DNA of 64,000 nucleotides from the NCBI RefSeq assembly GCF_053078305.1, contig NZ_CP166879.1; one strand, 5' to 3'. How positions within the stretch are numbered: position 1 is the first letter of the stretch; every line of letters starts with the position of its first letter. The notes under the pieces were generated by a model, which worked only from the letters and a program-made list of their open reading frames with translations, ran no database searches and was not told where the DNA came from. The position numbers and the translations under genes were made by a program. This document shows positions 6,230 through 60,383 of the stretch, one piece after another.

Positions 6230-7201
6230 TTACTGTTGCAATTCTTTCTCCGTGAAGAGATCGGCAAACAATGCGGTGCTTAAATAACGCTCACCCGATG
6301 ACGGTAGAATAACCACAATATTCTTGTTGGTAAAGCTTTCATCTTCTTGTAGTTTCAACGCCGCAGCAACAGCTGCTCCAGAAGAGATACCTGCAAGAAT
6401 ACCTTCTTCTTCCATCAGACGACGCGCGGTAGAAATCGCTTCTTCATTGGTTATGCCAATGACTTTATCGACCAGCTTGAGATCGAGGTTAGCCGGGATA
6501 AAACCAGCGCCAATACCCTGAATTTTATGCGGGCCAGGTTTAATCTCTTCACCTGCCAGCGCCTGGGCGATAACTGGAGAATCGGTTGGCTCAACGGCGA
6601 CAGAGATAAGATCGGTCTTACCTTTGGTGCCTTTAATGTAGCGGCTGACGCCAGTCAGCGTACCGCCAGTCCCAACGCCAGCAATAAATACATCAACCTG
6701 ACCGTCGGTATCTTCCCAGATCTCCGGACCGGTGGTTTTTTCGTGAATTTCAGGGTTTGCCGGATTGCTGAATTGTTGCAGCAGCAGGTATTTCTCTGGA
6801 TTGCTGGCGACAATTTCTTCTGCTTTTTGGATTGCGCCTTTCATGCCTTTAGCACCTTCGGTCAGCACCAGGTTTGCACCTAACGCTTTCAGCAGCTTGC
6901 GGCGTTCAATACTCATGGTTTCTGGCATGGTCAGGGTGAGTTTGTAACCGCGAGCGGCAGCGACATAGGCCAGTGCAATCCCGGTATTACCGCTGGTTGG
7001 TTCAACCAGTTCAACGCCTGGTTTCAGCACGCCGCGCTTTTCGGCATCCCAAATCATGTTGGCACCGATACGGCACTTAACGCTGAAGCTGGGGTTACGA
7101 GATTCCACCTTCGCCAGAATGCGTCCGTTACCGATGCGATTCAGGCGAACCAGCGGCGTGTGACCGATAGTCAGCGAGTTATCTTCAAAAATCTTACTCA
7201 T
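6230..7201 (-). CDS. cysK: cysteine synthase A (O-acetylserine sulfhydrylase A)
   Basis: 323 aa [23 protein letters not shown]...; PLP-dependent fold. Confidence 0.95.
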
Positions 7202-8147: not shown

Positions 8148-8376
8148 AATCAGGATGAGCTCCTTTTGACCAATCCCAGGAAAATTGTGCGTATTTTACC
8201 GGGTAATTGCGCAATGGACAGTTAGGATATGTTCGAAAAAACAGCAAAAAGCACGATTTCATCTATCTTTGTGCTGTGAAAGTTAATAGTGCACTTGCAC
8301 TTGAGGTAATCGGCAAATACTCTTAGTGAGTAAATGTTTGCCGTGGTGGCAAGGTGTTAGAACAACAGAGAATATA

Positions 8377-50893: not shown

Positions 50894-52057
50894 GTGGAAC
50901 AGATTAATTCAAATAAAAAACATTCTAACAGAAGAAAATACTTTTCTTTATTGGCGATAGTTTTATTTATTGCGTTTTCAGGTGCTTATGCCTATTGGTC
51001 AATGGAATTAGAAGACATGATTAGTACAGATGACGCCTATGTCACGGGGAATGCAGATCCAATTTCTGCACAAGTCTCAGGTAGTGTCACTGTAGTTAAT
51101 CATAAAGATACGAACTACGTTCGACAGGGTGACATTTTAGTTTCACTGGATAAAACTGATGCCACTATCGCACTCAATAAAGCTAAAAATAATCTGGCAA
51201 ATATTGTTCGGCAAACGAATAAACTGTACTTACAGGATAAACAATACAGTGCCGAAGTCGCTTCAGCACGTATTCAGTATCAACAATCTTTAGAAGATTA
51301 TAACCGTCGTGTGCCTTTAGCGAAGCAGGGGGTTATTTCAAAAGAAACGCTGGAGCATACCAAAGATACGTTAATAAGTAGCAAAGCGGCATTGAATGCC
51401 GCTATCCAGGCTTATAAAGCGAATAAAGCTTTAGTAATGAACACACCATTAAACCGTCAGCCACAAGTCGTTGAAGCTGCGGATGCAACCAAAGAAGCCT
51501 GGTTGGCGCTTAAACGTACGGATATTAAGAGTCCGGTTACCGGCTATATTGCCCAGAGAAGTGTTCAGGTCGGCGAAACAGTGAGCCCCGGACAATCGTT
51601 AATGGCTGTCGTACCGGCACGTCAAATGTGGGTTAATGCCAACTTTAAAGAAACACAACTCACGGATGTACGGATTGGTCAATCGGTCAATATTATCAGC
51701 GATCTTTATGGTGAAAATGTTGTGTTTCATGGCCGGGTGACAGGGATCAATATGGGAACCGGCAATGCGTTCTCCTTATTACCTGCACAAAATGCGACAG
51801 GGAACTGGATCAAAATCGTTCAGCGTGTACCGGTTGAAGTTTCTCTTGATCCAAAAGAACTCATGGAACACCCCTTGCGCATTGGTTTATCGATGACTGC
51901 AACTATTGATACGAAGGACGAAGACATTGCTGAGATGCCTGATCTGGCTTCAACCGTGACCTCCATGCCTGCTTATACCAGTAAGGCTTTAGTTATCGAT
52001 ACCAGTCCGATAGAAAAAGAAATTAGCAACATTATTTCGCATAATGGACAACTTTAA
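50894..52057 (+). CDS. emrK: multidrug efflux membrane fusion protein (EmrA-like)
   Basis: 387 aa; N-terminal TM anchor, HlyD-family coiled-coil/lipoyl regions; divergent from evgA. Confidence 0.9.
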   Translation: MEQINSNKKHSNRRKYFSLLAIVLFIAFSGAYAYWSMELEDMISTDDAYVTGNADPISAQVSGSVTVVNHKDTNYVRQGDILVSLDKTDATIALNKAKNNLANIVRQTNKLYLQDKQYSAEVASARIQYQQSLEDYNRRVPLAKQGVISKETLEHTKDTLISSKAALNAAIQAYKANKALVMNTPLNRQPQVVEAADATKEAWLALKRTDIKSPVTGYIAQRSVQVGETVSPGQSLMAVVPARQMWVNANFKETQLTDVRIGQSVNIISDLYGENVVFHGRVTGINMGTGNAFSLLPAQNATGNWIKIVQRVPVEVSLDPKELMEHPLRIGLSMTATIDTKDEDIAEMPDLASTVTSMPAYTSKALVIDTSPIEKEISNIISHNGQL

Positions 52058-53595
52058 TGGCAATCACTAAATCAACTCCAGCACCATTAACCGGTGGGAC
52101 GTTATGGTGCGTCACTATTGCATTGTCATTAGCGACGTTTATGCAAATGTTGGATTCCACTATTTCTAACGTCGCAATACCGACAATATCTGGCTTTCTG
52201 GGAGCATCAACAGACGAAGGCACCTGGGTTATCACCTCGTTTGGCGTAGCAAATGCCATTGCGATCCCTGTTACCGGCAGGCTGGCACAAAGAATAGGCG
52301 AATTAAGGTTATTTTTACTTTCAGTCACTTTTTTTTCGCTGTCTTCCTTAATGTGTAGTTTATCGACCAATCTTGATGTGTTGATATTTTTTAGAGTCGT
52401 TCAGGGGTTAATGGCAGGGCCGTTAATTCCACTGTCACAGAGTTTATTATTAAGGAATTATCCACCAGAAAAAAGAACATTTGCTCTGGCATTATGGTCA
52501 ATGACCGTGATTATAGCTCCGATATGTGGGCCGATATTAGGCGGATATATTTGCGATAACTTTAGCTGGGGTTGGATATTTTTAATCAATGTCCCTATGG
52601 GTATTATCGTCCTGACATTATGCTTAACCTTACTTAAAGGAAGAGAAACTGAGACTTCACCGGTCAAAATGAATCTACCAGGACTGACCCTGTTAGTGCT
52701 CGGTGTTGGTGGCTTGCAAATTATGCTTGATAAAGGGCGCGATCTGGATTGGTTCAACTCGAGTACAATAATAATATTAACAGTAGTATCAGTTATTTCT
52801 CTGATCTCTTTAGTCATTTGGGAGTCGACCTCAGAGAACCCGATTCTTGATCTCAGTTTGTTTAAGTCCCGTAATTTCACCATTGGTATAGTGAGTATCA
52901 CATGCGCGTATTTATTTTACTCTGGAGCGATCGTCCTTATGCCGCAGTTACTCCAGGAAACGATGGGGTATAATGCGATATGGGCCGGACTTGCTTATGC
53001 GCCCATCGGCATCATGCCACTATTAATTTCACCTTTGATAGGACGTTATGGCAACAAAATAGACATGCGGTTGTTAGTGACATTTAGTTTTTTGATGTAT
53101 GCGGTTTGCTATTACTGGCGTTCTGTGACATTTATGCCAACGATTGATTTTACAGGCATCATTTTGCCACAGTTTTTCCAGGGGTTCGCCGTTGCCTGTT
53201 TCTTTTTACCCTTAACAACGATTTCGTTTTCAGGGTTGCCAGATAATAAATTTGCCAATGCCTCGAGTATGAGTAATTTTTTTCGTACCTTGTCAGGATC
53301 AGTTGGTACGTCGTTGACAATGACGCTGTGGGGGCGACGCGAATCGTTACACCATAGTCAGTTGACAGCAACCATCGATCAATTTAACCCTGTGTTTAAT
53401 TCATCGTCACAAATTATGGATAAATACTATGGTTCGCTTTCAGGAGTTCTTAATGAAATTAATAATGAAATAACCCAGCAGTCACTTTCTATTTCTGCAA
53501 ATGAGATTTTCCGTATGGCGGCTATTGCTTTTATCTTACTTACGGTTTTGGTTTGGTTTGCGAAACCGCCGTTTACAGCGAAAGGCGTTGGGTGA
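52057..53595 (+). CDS. emrY: MFS multidrug efflux transporter (EmrB-like, 14-TM)
   Basis: 512 aa MFS ORF; start overlaps emrK stop (TAATGG). Confidence 0.9.
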   Translation: MAITKSTPAPLTGGTLWCVTIALSLATFMQMLDSTISNVAIPTISGFLGASTDEGTWVITSFGVANAIAIPVTGRLAQRIGELRLFLLSVTFFSLSSLMCSLSTNLDVLIFFRVVQGLMAGPLIPLSQSLLLRNYPPEKRTFALALWSMTVIIAPICGPILGGYICDNFSWGWIFLINVPMGIIVLTLCLTLLKGRETETSPVKMNLPGLTLLVLGVGGLQIMLDKGRDLDWFNSSTIIILTVVSVISLISLVIWESTSENPILDLSLFKSRNFTIGIVSITCAYLFYSGAIVLMPQLLQETMGYNAIWAGLAYAPIGIMPLLISPLIGRYGNKIDMRLLVTFSFLMYAVCYYWRSVTFMPTIDFTGIILPQFFQGFAVACFFLPLTTISFSGLPDNKFANASSMSNFFRTLSGSVGTSLTMTLWGRRESLHHSQLTATIDQFNPVFNSSSQIMDKYYGSLSGVLNEINNEITQQSLSISANEIFRMAAIAFILLTVLVWFAKPPFTAKGVG

Positions 53596-55031: not shown

Positions 55032-55048
55032 AGTACGTCTCTTTGCGC

Positions 55049-55279
55049 TTAGATGATAAATGACAGCAGGAATGTGCCCGCCAGAGCGACGACTGAAGCG
55101 ATAAATGTCGCTGTCGTATAGTATTTAAATGTTTCATTGAGCGTAGCGCCGCAATATTGCTTCACCAGCCAGAAAAGCGAGTCCGTAACGATCGTGCAGC
55201 CAATCGCGCCTGAACCGATAGCAATCGCAATAATTTCCGGGCTGATGTCGGGATACAGCGGCAGCACAATGATCCATAT
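55049..55279 (-). pseudogene. dsdX: 3'-terminal remnant of D-serine permease gene dsdX (GntP family)
   Basis: Only the last ~72 codons of a GntP-type permease are present immediately upstream of dsdA; reading frame is closed by a stop at 55280-55282. Confidence 0.7.
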
Positions 55280-55373
55280 TTATATTTTCTTCTCCAGGTT
55301 GGCGATGCCAGTTGGCATGTTTTACTTACTTGCCTATATGGTTACTCGTTGGCGAGAACAGAGGCGGAATTGG

Positions 55374-55385
55374 GGACAATTGTCC
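55374..55385. promoter_or_regulatory. perfect 12-bp palindrome upstream of cscR
   Basis: GGACAATTGTCC about 110 bp upstream of cscR start; candidate operator. Confidence 0.25.
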
Positions 55386-55497
55386 GGGAATTATTGTTAT
55401 TTTTTATTGTATTGCCGTGTCAGGTGATAGGGCGTTGGATCTCGCCAGTGACGTCTGTTTCTGCTACAGTGCCCGTTTTACGGCAAACGGCTTGGGT

Positions 55498-56493
55498 ATG
55501 GCTTCATTAAAGGATGTCGCACGCCTGGCGGGAGTGTCGATGATGACAGTCTCCCGGGTGATGCATAATGCAGAATCTGTGCGTCCTGCAACGCGTGACC
55601 GCGTATTGCAGGCAATCCAGACCCTGAATTATGTTCCTGATCTTTCCGCCCGTAAGATGCGCGCTCAAGGACGTAAGCCGTCGACTCTCGCCGTGCTGGC
55701 GCAGGACACTGCTACCACTCCTTTCTCTGTTGATATTCTGCTTGCCATTGAGCAAACCGCCAGCGAGTTCGGCTGGAATAGTTTTTTAATCAATATTTTT
55801 TCTGAAGATGACGCTGCCCGCGCGGCACGTCAGCTGCTTGCCCACCGTCCGGATGGCATTATCTATACTACAATGGGGCTGCGACATATCACGCTACCTG
55901 AGTCTCTGTATGGTGAAAATATTGTATTGGCGAACTGTGTGGCGGATGACCCAGCGTTACCCAGTTATATCCCTGATGATTACACTGCACAATATGAATC
56001 AACACAGCATTTGCTCGCGGCGGGCTATCGTCAACCGTTATGCTTCTGGCTACCGGAAAGTGCGTTGGCAACAGGGTATCGTCGGCAGGGATTTGAGCAG
56101 GCCTGGCGTGATGCTGGACGAGATCTGGCTGAGGTGAAACAATTTCACATGGCAACAGGTGATGATCACTACACCGATCTCGCAAGTTTACTCAATGACC
56201 ACTTCAAATCGGGCAAACCAGATTTTGATGTTCTGATATGTGGTAACGATCGCGCAGCCTTTGTGGCTTATCAGGTTCTCCTGGCTAAGGGGGTACGTAT
56301 CCCGCAGGATGTCGCCGTAATGGGCTTTGATAATCTGGTTGGCGTCGGGCATCTGTTTTTACCGCCGCTGACCACAATTCAGCTTCCACATGACATTATC
56401 GGGCGGGAAGCTGCATTGCATATTATTGAAGGTCGTGAAGGGGGAAGTGTGACGCGGATCCCTTGCCCGCTGTTGATCCGTTGTTCCACCTGA
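55498..56493 (+). CDS. cscR: LacI-family sucrose operon repressor
   Basis: 331 aa from MASLKDVARLAGVSMMTVSRVMHN (LacI HTH); the track ORF from 55312 is an upstream extension. Confidence 0.85.
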   Translation: MASLKDVARLAGVSMMTVSRVMHNAESVRPATRDRVLQAIQTLNYVPDLSARKMRAQGRKPSTLAVLAQDTATTPFSVDILLAIEQTASEFGWNSFLINIFSEDDAARAARQLLAHRPDGIIYTTMGLRHITLPESLYGENIVLANCVADDPALPSYIPDDYTAQYESTQHLLAAGYRQPLCFWLPESALATGYRRQGFEQAWRDAGRDLAEVKQFHMATGDDHYTDLASLLNDHFKSGKPDFDVLICGNDRAAFVAYQVLLAKGVRIPQDVAVMGFDNLVGVGHLFLPPLTTIQLPHDIIGREAALHIIEGREGGSVTRIPCPLLIRCST

Positions 56494-56500
56494 TATTATG

Positions 56501-57934
56501 TTAACCCAGTTGCCAGAGTGCTCCATGTTGCACCACAGCCACTCCGTGGGAGGCATAAAGCGACAGTTCCCGTTCTTCTGGCTGCGGATAGATTCGACTA
56601 CTCATCACCGCTTCCCCGTCGTTAATAAATACTTCCACGGATGATGTATCGATAAATATCCTTAGGGCGAGCGTGTCACGCTGCGGGAGGGGAATACTAC
56701 GGTAGCCGTCTAAATTCTCGTGTGGGTAATACCGCCACAAAACAAGTCGCTCAGATTGGTTATCAATATACAGCCGCATTCCAATGCCGAGCTGTAATCC
56801 GTAATGTTCGGCATCACTGTTCTTCAGCGCCCACTGCAACTGAATCTCAACTGCTTGCGCGTTTTCCTGCAAAACATATTTATTGCTGATTGTGCGGGGA
56901 GAGATAGATTGATGCTGCTGGCGTAACGACTCAGCTTCGTGTACCGGGCGTTGTAGGAGTTTGCCATTGCTCTCTGATAGCTCGCGCGCCAGCGTCATGC
57001 AGCCTGCCCAGCCTTCACGTTTTGAGGGCATTGGCGATTCCCACATATCCATCCAGCCGATAACAATACGCCGACCATCCTTCGCTACAAAGCTTTGTGG
57101 TGCATAAAAGTCATGCCCGTTATCAAGTTCAGTAAAATGCCCGGATTGTGCAAAAAGTCGTCCTGGCGACCACATTCCGGGTATTACGCCACTTTGAAAG
57201 CGATTTCGGTAACTGTATCCCTCGGCATTCATTCCCTGCGGGGAAAACATCAGATAATGCTGATCGCCAAGGCTGAAAAAGTCCGGACATTCCCACATAT
57301 AGCTTTCACCCGCATCAGCGTGGGCCAGTACGCGATCGAAAGTCCATTCACGTAATGAACTGCCGCGATAAAGCAGGATCTGCCCCGTGTTGCCTGGGTC
57401 TTTCGCCCCGACTACCATCCACCATGTGTCGGCTTCACGCCACACTTTAGGATCGCGGAAGTGCATGATTCCTTCTGGTGGAGTGAGGATCACACCCTGT
57501 TTCTCGAAATGAATACCATCCCGACTGGTAGCCAGACATTGTACTTCGCGAATTGCATCGTCATTACCTGCACCATCGAGCCAGACGTGTCCGGTGTAGA
57601 TAAGTGAGAGGACACCATTGTCATCGACAGCACTACCTGAAAAACACCCGTCTTTGTCATTATCGTCTCCTGGCGCTAGCGCAATAGGCTCATGCTGCCA
57701 GTGGATCATATCGTCGCTGGTGGCATGTCCCCAGTGCATTGGCCCCCAGTGTTCGCTCATTGGGTGATGTTGATAAAACGCGTGATAACGATCGTTAAAC
57801 CAGATCAGGCCGTTTGGATCGTTCATCCACCCGGCAGGAGGCGCGAGGTGAAAATGGGGATAGAAAGTGTTACCCCGGTGCTCATGAAGTTTTGCTAGTG
57901 CGTTTTGCGCCGCATGCAATCGAGATTGCGTCAT
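56501..57934 (-). CDS. cscA: sucrose-6-phosphate hydrolase / invertase (GH32)
   Basis: 477 aa from MTQSRLH...; GH32 motifs WMNDPNG, FRDPKV, WECPD. Confidence 0.88.
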   Translation of the reverse strand: MTQSRLHAAQNALAKLHEHRGNTFYPHFHLAPPAGWMNDPNGLIWFNDRYHAFYQHHPMSEHWGPMHWGHATSDDMIHWQHEPIALAPGDDNDKDGCFSGSAVDDNGVLSLIYTGHVWLDGAGNDDAIREVQCLATSRDGIHFEKQGVILTPPEGIMHFRDPKVWREADTWWMVVGAKDPGNTGQILLYRGSSLREWTFDRVLAHADAGESYMWECPDFFSLGDQHYLMFSPQGMNAEGYSYRNRFQSGVIPGMWSPGRLFAQSGHFTELDNGHDFYAPQSFVAKDGRRIVIGWMDMWESPMPSKREGWAGCMTLARELSESNGKLLQRPVHEAESLRQQHQSISPRTISNKYVLQENAQAVEIQLQWALKNSDAEHYGLQLGIGMRLYIDNQSERLVLWRYYPHENLDGYRSIPLPQRDTLALRIFIDTSSVEVFINDGEAVMSSRIYPQPEERELSLYASHGVAVVQHGALWQLG

Positions 57935-57966
57935 TTTAATCATCCTGGTTAAGCAAATTTGGTGAA

Positions 57967-58044
57967 TTGTTAACGTTAACTTTTATAAAAATAAAGTCCC
58001 TTACTTTCATAAATGCGATGAATATCACAAATGTTAACGTTAAC
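57967..58044. promoter_or_regulatory. cscA / cscKB divergent control region with two copies of a LacI-type operator palindrome
   Basis: TGTTAACGTTAAC occurs at 57967-57980 and 58032-58044 (core GTTAACGTTAAC is palindromic). Confidence 0.55.
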
Positions 58045-58149
58045 TATGACATTTTGTGATCGAATATGCATGTTTTAGTAAATCCATGACGATTTTGCGA
58101 AAAAGAGGTTTATCACTATGCGTAAGTCAGATGAATTTAAGGGAAAAAA

Positions 58150-59064
58150 ATGTCAGCCAAAGTATGGGTTTTAGGGGATGCGGTAGTAGATCTCTTGCCA
58201 GAATCAGACGGGCGCCTACTGCCTTGTCCTGGCGGCGCGCCAGCTAACGTTGCGGTGGGAATCGCCAGATTAGGCGGAATAAGTGGGTTTATAGGTCGGG
58301 TCGGTGATGATCCTTTTGGTGCGTTAATGCAAAGAACGCTGCTAACTGAGGGAGTCGATATCACGTATCTGAAGCAAGATGAATGGCACCGGACATCCAC
58401 GGTGCTTGTCGATCTGAACGATCAAGGGGAACGTTCATTTACGTTTATGGTCCGCCCCAGTGCCGATCTTTTTTTAGAGACGACAGACTTGCCCTGCTGG
58501 CGACATGGCGAATGGTTACATCTCTGTTCAATTGCGTTGTCTGCCGAGCCTTCGCGTACCAGCGCATTTACTGCGATGACTGCGATCCGGCATGCCGGAG
58601 GTTTTGTCAGCTTCGATCCCAATATTCGTGAAGATCTATGGCAAGACGAGCATTTGCTCCGCTTGTGTTTGCGGCAGGCGCTACAACTGGCGGATGTCGT
58701 CAAGCTCTCGGAAGAAGAATGGCGACTTATCAGTGGAAAAACACAGAACGATCGGAATATATGCGCCCTGGCAAAAGAGTATGAGATCGCCATGCTGTTG
58801 GTGACTAAAGGTGCAGAAGGGGTGGTGGTCTGTTATCGAGGACAAGTTCACCATTTTGCTGGAATGTCTGTGAATTGTGTCGATAGCACGGGGGCGGGAG
58901 ATGCGTTCGTTGCCGGGTTACTCACAGGTCTGTCCTCTACGGGATTATCTACAGATGAGAGAGGAATGCGACGAATTATCGATCTCGCTCAACGTTGCGG
59001 AGCGCTTGCAGTAACGGCGAAAGGGGCAATGACAGCGCTGCCATGTCGACAAGAACTGGAATAG
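58150..59064 (+). CDS. cscK: fructokinase (ribokinase/pfkB family)
   Basis: 304 aa; pfkB motifs (VVDLLPE..., DSTGAGDAFVAGLL). Confidence 0.88.
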   Translation: MSAKVWVLGDAVVDLLPESDGRLLPCPGGAPANVAVGIARLGGISGFIGRVGDDPFGALMQRTLLTEGVDITYLKQDEWHRTSTVLVDLNDQGERSFTFMVRPSADLFLETTDLPCWRHGEWLHLCSIALSAEPSRTSAFTAMTAIRHAGGFVSFDPNIREDLWQDEHLLRLCLRQALQLADVVKLSEEEWRLISGKTQNDRNICALAKEYEIAMLLVTKGAEGVVVCYRGQVHHFAGMSVNCVDSTGAGDAFVAGLLTGLSSTGLSTDERGMRRIIDLAQRCGALAVTAKGAMTALPCRQELE

Positions 59065-59135: not shown

Positions 59136-60383
59136 ATGGCACTGAATATCCCATTCAGAAATGCGTACTATCGTTTTGCATCCAGTTACTCATTTCTCTT
59201 TTTTATTTCCTGGTCGCTGTGGTGGTCGTTATACGCTATTTGGCTGAAAGGACATCTAGGGTTGACAGGGACGGAATTAGGTACACTTTATTCGGTCAAC
59301 CAGTTTACCAGCATTCTATTTATGATGTTCTACGGCATCGTTCAGGATAAACTCGGTCTGAAGAAACCGCTCATCTGGTGTATGAGTTTTATCCTGATCT
59401 TGACCGGACCGTTTATGATTTACGTTTATGAACCGTTACTGCAAAGCAATTTTTCTGTAGGTTTAATTCTGGGGGCGCTCTTTTTTGGCCTGGGGTATCT
59501 GGCGGGATGCGGTTTGCTTGACAGCTTCACCGAAAAAATGGCGCGAAATTTTCATTTCGAATATGGAACAGCGCGCGCCTGGGGATCTTTTGGCTATGCT
59601 ATTGGCGCGTTCTTTGCCGGCATATTTTTTAGTATCAGTCCCCATATTAACTTCTGGTTGGTCTCGCTATTTGGCGCTGTATTTATGATGATCAACATGT
59701 GTTTTAAAGATAAGGATCACCAGTGCGTAGCGGCGGATGCGGGAGGGGTAAAAAAAGAGGATTTTATCGCAGTTTTCAAGGATCGAAACTTCTGGGTTTT
59801 CGTCATATTTATTGTTGGGACGTGGTCTTTCTATAACATTTTTGATCAACAACTTTTTCCTGTCTTTTATGCAGGTTTATTCGAATCACACGATGTAGGA
59901 ACGCGCCTGTATGGTTATCTCAACTCATTCCAGGTGGTACTCGAAGCGCTGTGCATGGCGATTATTCCGTTCTTTGTGAATCGGGTAGGGCCAAAAAATG
60001 CATTACTTATCGGTGTTGTGATTATGGCGTTGCGTATCCTTTCCTGCGCGCTGTTCGTTAACCCCTGGATTATTTCATTAGTGAAGCTGTTACATGCCAT
60101 TGAGGTTCCACTTTATGTCATATCCGTCTTCAAATACAGCGTGGCAAACTTTGATAAGCGCCTGTCGTCGACGATCTTTCTGATTGGTTTTCAAATTGCC
60201 AGTTCGCTTGGGATTGTGCTGCTTTCAACGCCGACTGGGATACTCTTTGACCACGCAGGCTACCAGACAGTTTTCTTCGCAATTTCGGGTATTGTCTGCC
60301 TGATGTTGCTATTTGGCATTTTCTTCCTGAGTAAAAAACGCGAGCAAATAGTTATGGAAACGCCTGTACCTTCAGCAATATAG
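59136..60383 (+). CDS. cscB: sucrose:H+ symporter (oligosaccharide:H+ symporter family, LacY-like)
   Basis: 415 aa 12-TM MFS ORF. Confidence 0.88.
   Translation: MALNIPFRNAYYRFASSYSFLFFISWSLWWSLYAIWLKGHLGLTGTELGTLYSVNQFTSILFMMFYGIVQDKLGLKKPLIWCMSFILILTGPFMIYVYEPLLQSNFSVGLILGALFFGLGYLAGCGLLDSFTEKMARNFHFEYGTARAWGSFGYAIGAFFAGIFFSISPHINFWLVSLFGAVFMMINMCFKDKDHQCVAADAGGVKKEDFIAVFKDRNFWVFVIFIVGTWSFYNIFDQQLFPVFYAGLFESHDVGTRLYGYLNSFQVVLEALCMAIIPFFVNRVGPKNALLIGVVIMALRILSCALFVNPWIISLVKLLHAIEVPLYVISVFKYSVANFDKRLSSTIFLIGFQIASSLGIVLLSTPTGILFDHAGYQTVFFAISGIVCLMLLFGIFFLSKKREQIVMETPVPSAI

Follow-up and report, generated by a model that had tools for sequence, protein, structure and literature searches.

The two identical copies of the 12-bp palindrome GTTAACGTTAAC that lie between cscA and cscK are very likely operators of CscR, the repressor of the chromosomal csc regulon, and they belong to a conserved cassette in which one operator (O1), a promoter, a CRP site, the other operator (O2) and a second CRP site follow one another. 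The original prediction had taken the palindromes for CscR operators at the divergent cscA and cscKB promoters, and this identification is upheld by the anatomy of the region, by a comparison across 80 species and by published genetics. The operator pair is already known, the same element having been described in another strain in 2002; added here to the earlier work are the extension of the comparison to 80 species rather than five, the fixed offsets between O2 and the CRP sites, lineages with a single operator, and a natural deletion of one repeat unit. All positions refer to the window, by which we mean the whole 64,000-nt stretch of DNA analysed.

The csc locus

The four genes of the locus (Table 1) were assigned from family models, namely those of an invertase, a fructokinase, an oligosaccharide transporter of the MFS class and a LacI-family regulator, together with the RefSeq annotation. 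The 5.5-kb stretch that contains them is 99.8% identical to E. coli chromosomes on which the genes are annotated as cscR, cscA, cscK and cscB, and the identity of the window to annotated csc loci is 99.5-99.8%. Both the published csc gene set and its arrangement are present, with dsdA and a truncated dsdX on the flank (the dsd-argW hotspot), and a csc locus was found in 2,645-2,662 of 5,426 complete genomes. Most of the RefSeq records that we compared (H1-H39) use other names, giving cscK as 'aminoimidazole riboside kinase', cscA as 'sucrose-6-phosphate hydrolase' and cscR as 'LacI family regulator'.

Table 1. Features of the csc locus and of the region between cscA and cscK (window coordinates).
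Feature	Position	Strand	Sequence	Description
cscR	55498-56493	+		LacI-family sucrose repressor, 331 aa; convergent with cscA; family models and RefSeq annotation
cscA	56501-57934	-		Sucrose hydrolase (invertase); family models and RefSeq annotation
O1, putative operator, cscA-proximal	core 57969-57980, centre 57974.5; repeat unit 57965-57981		GTTAACGTTAAC	Perfect 12-bp palindrome
Putative cscA -10	57988-57993	-	TATTTT	Placed by geometry only; implied start ~57980-57981
CRP-like site 1	58014-58029, centre 58021.5		TGCGAtgaataTCACA	One mismatch to TGTGA-N6-TCACA; ends 3 bp before the O2 core
O2, putative operator, cscA-distal (cscK side)	core 58033-58044, centre 58038.5; repeat unit 58029-58045		GTTAACGTTAAC	Identical to O1
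CRP-like site 2	58055-58070, centre 58062.5		TGTGAtcgaatATGCA	Three mismatches, weak in E. coli; starts 10 bp past the O2 core
Tentative cscKB -10	58091-58096	+	GATTTT	Placed, weakly, by geometry only; implied start ~58103
cscK	58150-59064	+		Fructokinase; heads the cscKB operon; family models and RefSeq annotation
cscB	59136-60383	+		Sucrose:H+ symporter, MFS class; family models and RefSeq annotation

The length of the intergenic region depends on the start codon chosen for cscA. The 206 bp originally given holds only for an ATG at 57943, whereas the RefSeq ATG at 57934, which has an AGGA Shine-Dalgarno sequence 8 nt upstream, gives 215 bp. The list of ORFs over-extends two of the genes: cscA is given 480 aa from the ATG at 57943, against 477 aa from the RefSeq start, and cscR is given 393 aa from a TTG at 55312, against the 331 aa from the annotated start at 55498, a length that matches all of the orthologs. 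The remnant of dsdX lies between dsdA and cscR (window 55032-55497), at about 55049-55267 when its position is transferred from locus L001, next to the segment 53703-55031; it marks the known event in which the csc island took the place of dsdC and dsdX at the dsd/argW hotspot. The gene just upstream is emrY, at 52057-53595.

Sequence of the operator pair

As originally claimed, the sequence TGTTAACGTTAAC is duplicated between cscA and cscK, and we found exactly two copies, with no mismatches, at 57968-57980 and 58032-58044. They are not 65 bp apart, as had been stated, but 64 bp from start to start, with 51 bp between them. The description of the sequence as a palindrome applies to its inner 12 nt, GTTAACGTTAAC, the leading T of TGTTAACGTTAAC being unpaired in either E. 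coli copy. A repeat finder extended the direct repeat to 17 nt, AAtTGTTAACGTTAACT, again with a spacing of 64 bp from start to start. The 12-nt core is a perfect even palindrome with CG at its centre, and a central CG in an even palindrome is a hallmark of LacI-family operators. The sites thus have the form of operators of the LacI/GalR family, which are even inverted repeats of ~14-20 bp with a central CG, and they also have the expected setting, in the promoter region of catabolic genes beside a LacI-family gene that encodes a helix-turn-helix and a sugar-binding domain.

A chance origin of the pair is excluded. From the local base composition, the 12-mer should occur ~2e-5 times in the intergenic region, and across all 64 kb of the window no other word of at least 13 nt recurs within 100 bp. 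A single 12-bp palindrome is nothing unusual (21 were found in the window against 15.6 expected), and we therefore place weight on the duplication and on the comparative data rather than on palindromy alone. One other perfect 12-bp palindrome, TAACGATCGTTA, lies at 57786-57797, inside the cscA coding region and ~140 bp from its start; it is AT-centred rather than CG-centred and was not reported when the window was scanned with the position weight matrix (PWM) for CscR at a threshold of 8, in which O1 and O2 each scored 24.9, and it is therefore probably a product of chance.

Several other candidates were considered and rejected. An origin of the pair by tandem duplication was discarded, as the two 64-bp units have only the 17-nt repeat in common, and an RNA element was discarded because the stretch 57700-58400 had no Rfam match, only a meaningless score of 13.8 bits being returned. 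The small intergenic ORFs of 30-31 aa gained no support. A search upstream of cscR for an autoregulatory operator found none, the best match having four mismatches, and autoregulation of cscR through this palindrome motif was rejected on that ground.

Conservation of the palindrome with CscR

In order to compare loci that encode CscR orthologs, we used an alignment of 24 such orthologs to fetch 80 loci from the Enterobacterales and Orbaceae, one genome per species, in which the CscR orthologs were 52-96% identical; homologs of the csc genes were mapped in each locus, and the 1.14 Mb of sequence was scanned for the palindrome. Perfect copies numbered 94, against ~0.07 expected. When one mismatch was allowed, 165 of the 171 sites lay within the 300 bp upstream of csc homologs, which make up 5% of the sequence, and three of the six remaining sites came from one Morganella locus, beside genes that our queries did not recognize. 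The flanks, which had not been selected for, extend the palindrome to a consensus of 16-18 bp, aATGTTAACGTTAACATt.

Across the 80 species the palindrome follows the CscR orthologs through several gene orders: cscA/cscK, the E. coli layout; cscA/cscB, in Rosenbergiella; an operon of cscB'-cscA, in Pectobacterium, Yersinia, Serratia, Rahnella and Pantoea; and cscA-cscB'/cscR, in Enterobacter, Klebsiella, Citrobacter and others. The motif and the regulator thus co-occur, as a phylogenetic footprint of one upon the other should. Operator pairs were present in 65 of the 80 loci, and their spacing was 64 bp in 38 loci, 63 bp in 13, 57 bp in eight, 69 bp in four and 62 bp in two.

The conserved unit is larger than the original prediction saw, in that it comprises O1, the promoter, a CRP site, O2 and a further CRP site. 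An alignment of 28 sequences, the window and 27 loci of other species, gave a cassette consisting of O1, ~30 variable bp, CRP site 1, 3 bp, O2, ~10 bp and CRP site 2, with O1 of the window aligning to the proximal operator of 27 other genera. In most genera the two-operator module stands upstream of a single operon, without a consistent divergent csc gene, which suggests that the promoter of the cscA-containing operon has an operator on each side. Where a cscB'-cscA operon comes after the cassette, too, there is no consistent divergent gene, and the cassette in its entirety, with O2 and CRP site 2, would there serve one promoter.

The operator pair is not obligatory, as shown by Providencia (L017, L020-L023) and Moellerella (L025), in which cscA and cscK are divergent as in E. 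coli and only one perfect operator is present. A PWM search of these two genera found no degenerate second operator, and no conserved CRP-like sites were seen in them: L017 alone had two matches with two mismatches, and L021, L022 and L025 had none. Regulation at these loci seems to follow a simpler plan.

CRP-like sites and putative promoters

The two CRP-like sites hold fixed positions relative to O2. CRP site 1 lies at an offset of -19 from the start of O2 in 52 of the 65 paired loci, with two mismatches or fewer to TGTGA-N6-TCACA in 51 of the 65, and CRP site 2 lies at +22, again in 52 of the 65, with two mismatches or fewer in 36 of the 65; the background rate of such matches is ~0.4%. 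By this motif the region resembles CRP-activated promoters. The consensus sequences that the 28-sequence alignment gave across genera are tGATGtTAATCACa / tGTGATGTTAATCACA for site 1 and TG.GAtc..gaTca / TGtGATCnnGATCAca for site 2.

With CRP site 1 taken as a class II site, transcription of cscA would start near 57980, with O1 at about +1 to +12, CRP site 1 at about -41 and O2 at about -58. This geometry agrees with the part of PMC11251922 that describes the promoter, in which the downstream operator lies over the start and the -35 has a CRP site next to it. By the same reasoning, with CRP site 2 as a class II site, cscKB would start near 58103, and CRP site 2 would be at about -41 and O2 at about -65 of that promoter; the GATTTT stretch that would provide its -10 is conserved within E. 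coli. A scan of 57900-58200 for sigma-70 and terminator consensus sequences found nothing. Such scans are usually blank at activator-dependent promoters and are thus uninformative for those that depend on CRP.

The CscR protein

CscR has the domains PF00356 (helix-turn-helix), PF00532 and PF13377, and a protein search found many full-length orthologs, with identities of 52-79%. In the alignment of 24 orthologs the recognition-helix residues V13, S14, M16, T17, S19 and R20 are invariant, and this invariance parallels that of the operator half-site, which supports the identification of the palindromes as CscR operators. Among named NCBIfam models, the best score for CscR was that of CytR, at 138 bits, far under the cutoff of 436 bits. 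On the LacI-subfamily profile of 358 positions the CscR match stops at position 330, indicating that the protein has no counterpart of the C-terminal tetramerization segment of LacI. The PDB entry 6NDI, labelled only 'Transcriptional regulator', is a protein of 334 aa with two chains, whose match to CscR is full-length (E = 1e-113). It probably belongs among the orthologs of the CscR group, and it could be a template on which to model operator recognition.

Proposed regulation of cscA and cscKB

In the passages of PMC11251922 that cite Jahreis et al. (2002, J Bacteriol 184:5307), the region between cscA and cscK is said to contain a pair of 12-bp inverted repeats, given as putative CscR operators. 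According to the same passages these flank the -35 and -10 of cscA, the downstream repeat extends over the start, a CRP site is next to the -35, and a mutation in one of the operators raised expression. Conservation of the repeats in five species was shown in 2024 (PMC11251922). A study of 2014 (PMC3938415) names operator sites for cscA and for cscKB and re-isolated a known mutation of the cscKB operator in E. coli W, a recurrent mutation that allows growth on low sucrose; it also reports that a cyaA mutant loses growth on sucrose, and a passage in it citing Sabri et al. (2013, AEM 79:478) places two cAMP-CRP sites in the bidirectional promoter. In published work, loss of cscR derepresses the csc regulon. 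CscR is, furthermore, among the sucrose regulators whose motifs were reconstructed in a comparative study of the LacI family (PMC4052901). The literature that we searched contained no EMSA or footprint report of direct binding by E. coli CscR. Between our region and the csc operators of E. coli EC3132 and W there is no substantive difference, since they agree in the locus, in the repeats, in CscR as the proposed regulator and in the CRP sites.

We propose that a CscR dimer would occupy each palindrome in the absence of inducer, and that sucrose, or a product of sucrose, would free the repressor. At O1, which would lie across the transcription start of cscA, the bound repressor would block RNA polymerase, while CRP site 1, at about -41, would be the class II activator site of the same promoter. 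Activation of cscKB probably works through CRP site 2, with O2 just upstream of that site, and CscR at O2 would repress cscKB mainly by interfering with activation by CRP rather than by occluding RNA polymerase. We infer the transcription starts, the assignment of operators to promoters and the anti-activation step; the last is suggested by the position of O2, which is separated by 3 bp from CRP site 1 and by 10 bp from CRP site 2, at offsets that are fixed in more than 50 species. The claim that the operators control both promoters is thus supported, with the refinement that the layout is probably not one operator for each promoter: both putative operators are likely to serve the promoter of cscA, with O2 likely to act also on the divergent cscKB promoter in E. 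coli. A broader proposal, that the cassette is old and portable (from Escherichia to Gilliamella), that O2 works by anti-activation, CscR there excluding or capturing CRP and not RNA polymerase, and that cscKB co-opted the upstream half of a module that at first pointed in one direction only, is put forward tentatively, and as a whole we regard it as rather doubtful.

The two operators might instead act independently, O1 on cscA only and O2 on cscKB only. The naming of separate cscA and cscKB operators in PMC3938415, and the growth on low sucrose that follows mutation of the 'cscKB operator', are in line with this simpler arrangement, and Providencia and Moellerella, which manage divergent cscA and cscK genes with a single operator, illustrate that one site can suffice. 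However, O2 and CRP site 2 are kept at the same offsets in front of cscB'-cscA operons that have no consistent divergent gene, which suggests a role for O2 at the promoter on the cscA side. In addition, both operators flank the cscA promoter in the relevant passages of PMC11251922, and a position near -65 of cscKB, which O2 would have if CRP site 2 served cscKB in class II fashion, is unsuited to simple occlusion of RNA polymerase. We therefore regard the assignment of one operator to each promoter as possible but rather doubtful.

Repression by DNA looping, as with lacO1-O3 or galOE-OI, in which CscR on the two operators would enclose the promoter and CRP site 1 within a loop of 64 bp, appears improbable. 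Its attraction is the spacing of 63-64 bp in 51 of the 65 pairs, which is ~6 helical turns and sets the operators on the same face of the DNA, but the pairs of other lineages (12 of 65) are spaced at 57 bp (~5.4 turns) or 69 bp (~6.6 turns), out of phase, and the fixed promoter geometry explains the common spacing well enough, because the offset between O2 and CRP site 1 is fixed and a class II CRP site fixes the start. Moreover, a loop of 64 bp is very short unless a DNA-bending protein assists, and a LacI-type loop calls for a repressor able to bridge two operators, whereas CscR (331 aa) has no LacI tetramerization segment, as judged from where it ends on the profile and from its close solved homolog 6NDI, which has 334 aa and two chains.

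That the sites are not CscR operators at all, but a relic of chance or duplication, an RNA element, or a target of Cra/FruR or another LacI paralog, is very improbable indeed, because, for all that single 12-bp palindromes are common in the window (21) and the literature searched gave no direct report of CscR binding, the motif tracks CscR orthologs over 80 species and is nearly absent elsewhere in the 1.14 Mb, published mutations of the operator and of cscR both derepress, and the Cra half-site, TGAATC, differs from the half-site GTTAAC found here.

With the palindromes read as CscR operators, the practical interest of the region is that the csc regulon underlies sucrose-fed industrial E. coli (strain W and engineered K-12), in which growth on low sucrose is commonly obtained by derepression, a standard approach that uses mutations of cscR or of the operators. 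Knowledge of the operators, of the CRP sites and of the geometry that they keep should help in the design of tuned promoters, a value that is modest. The comparison across 80 species moves the operators from 'putative' to very well supported, and it supplies a CscR motif that can be put to use. It is a correct, ordinary finding, which opens no new question of general interest.

Comparison with related systems

One parallel is with the operators O1 and O2 of ScrR at the scrY promoter of pUR400 and Klebsiella where, in the passages of PMC11251922 that cite Cowan (1991) and Jahreis & Lengeler (1993) for the ScrR operators, the downstream operator likewise lies over the start and a CRP site lies upstream. 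The ScrR system differs, however, in that the repressor belongs to another orthologous group, the pathway is a PTS and the effectors are fructose and fructose-1-phosphate; its operators are 14-bp inverted repeats of a different sequence, at a single promoter with no divergent operon and with a CRP site that is poorly conserved.

Promoters regulated by CytR and CRP (deoP2, cdd and others) resemble the O2 half of the cassette, because in both a site for a LacI-family repressor has a CRP site on each side. The sites of CytR are weak, and their cooperative binding depends on CRP, with the CRP sites ~52-53 bp apart. By contrast, the csc operator is a perfect palindrome, its CRP sites are centred 41 bp from each other, and there is another operator at the putative start. 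Thus O2 shares with the CytR class its place between tandem CRP sites, and neither the weak, CRP-dependent operator nor the ~52-53 bp spacing; the resemblance is one of layout only. The operator pairs of lac and gal are similar in that two LacI/GalR-family operators bracket a CRP-dependent promoter, but CscR lacks the tetramerization segment and the helical phasing of its operators does not hold in every lineage.

Variation within E. coli and at other loci

The intergenic region was present in 2,662 of the 5,426 complete genomes, and among the 25 records listed no feature was annotated under the match. We aligned eight sequences, the window and seven other E. coli alleles, one of which is divergent (92-96% protein identity). 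SNPs were confined to the spacers and the operators did not vary: O2 is invariant in all seven of the other alleles and O1 in six, the seventh, from O84:H7 strain Trh52 (L087, NZ_CP047600.1), keeping one operator copy only. Exactly one 64-bp unit, corresponding to window 57968-58031, has been lost from this allele, and the deletion covers one copy of the operator, the putative core promoter of cscA and CRP-like site 1. Such a loss is what recombination between the two direct copies, or slippage, would be expected to produce. Partial coverage of the kind seen in Trh52 occurs in at most five of the 2,662 genomes.

Two further arrangements of operator-like sites were observed among the other species. 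In Morganella psychrotolerans (L072), three strong sites are found downstream of the cscR ortholog, at 8254, 8486 and 8550 of that locus, with a spacing of 64 bp between two of them. The neighbouring genes had no match to CscA, CscK or CscB, and the locus may hold a different sucrose gene set under the same regulator. In Gilliamella (L037-L058), an extra pair of overlapping operator-like sites, 14 bp apart (for example at 6826 and 6840 of L038), lies between cscB and cscR, at loci that also carry an operator pair spaced by 57 bp upstream of cscA; the overlapping pair is similar to a described class of overlapping LacI-family sites that are ~13 bp apart (PMC4052901).
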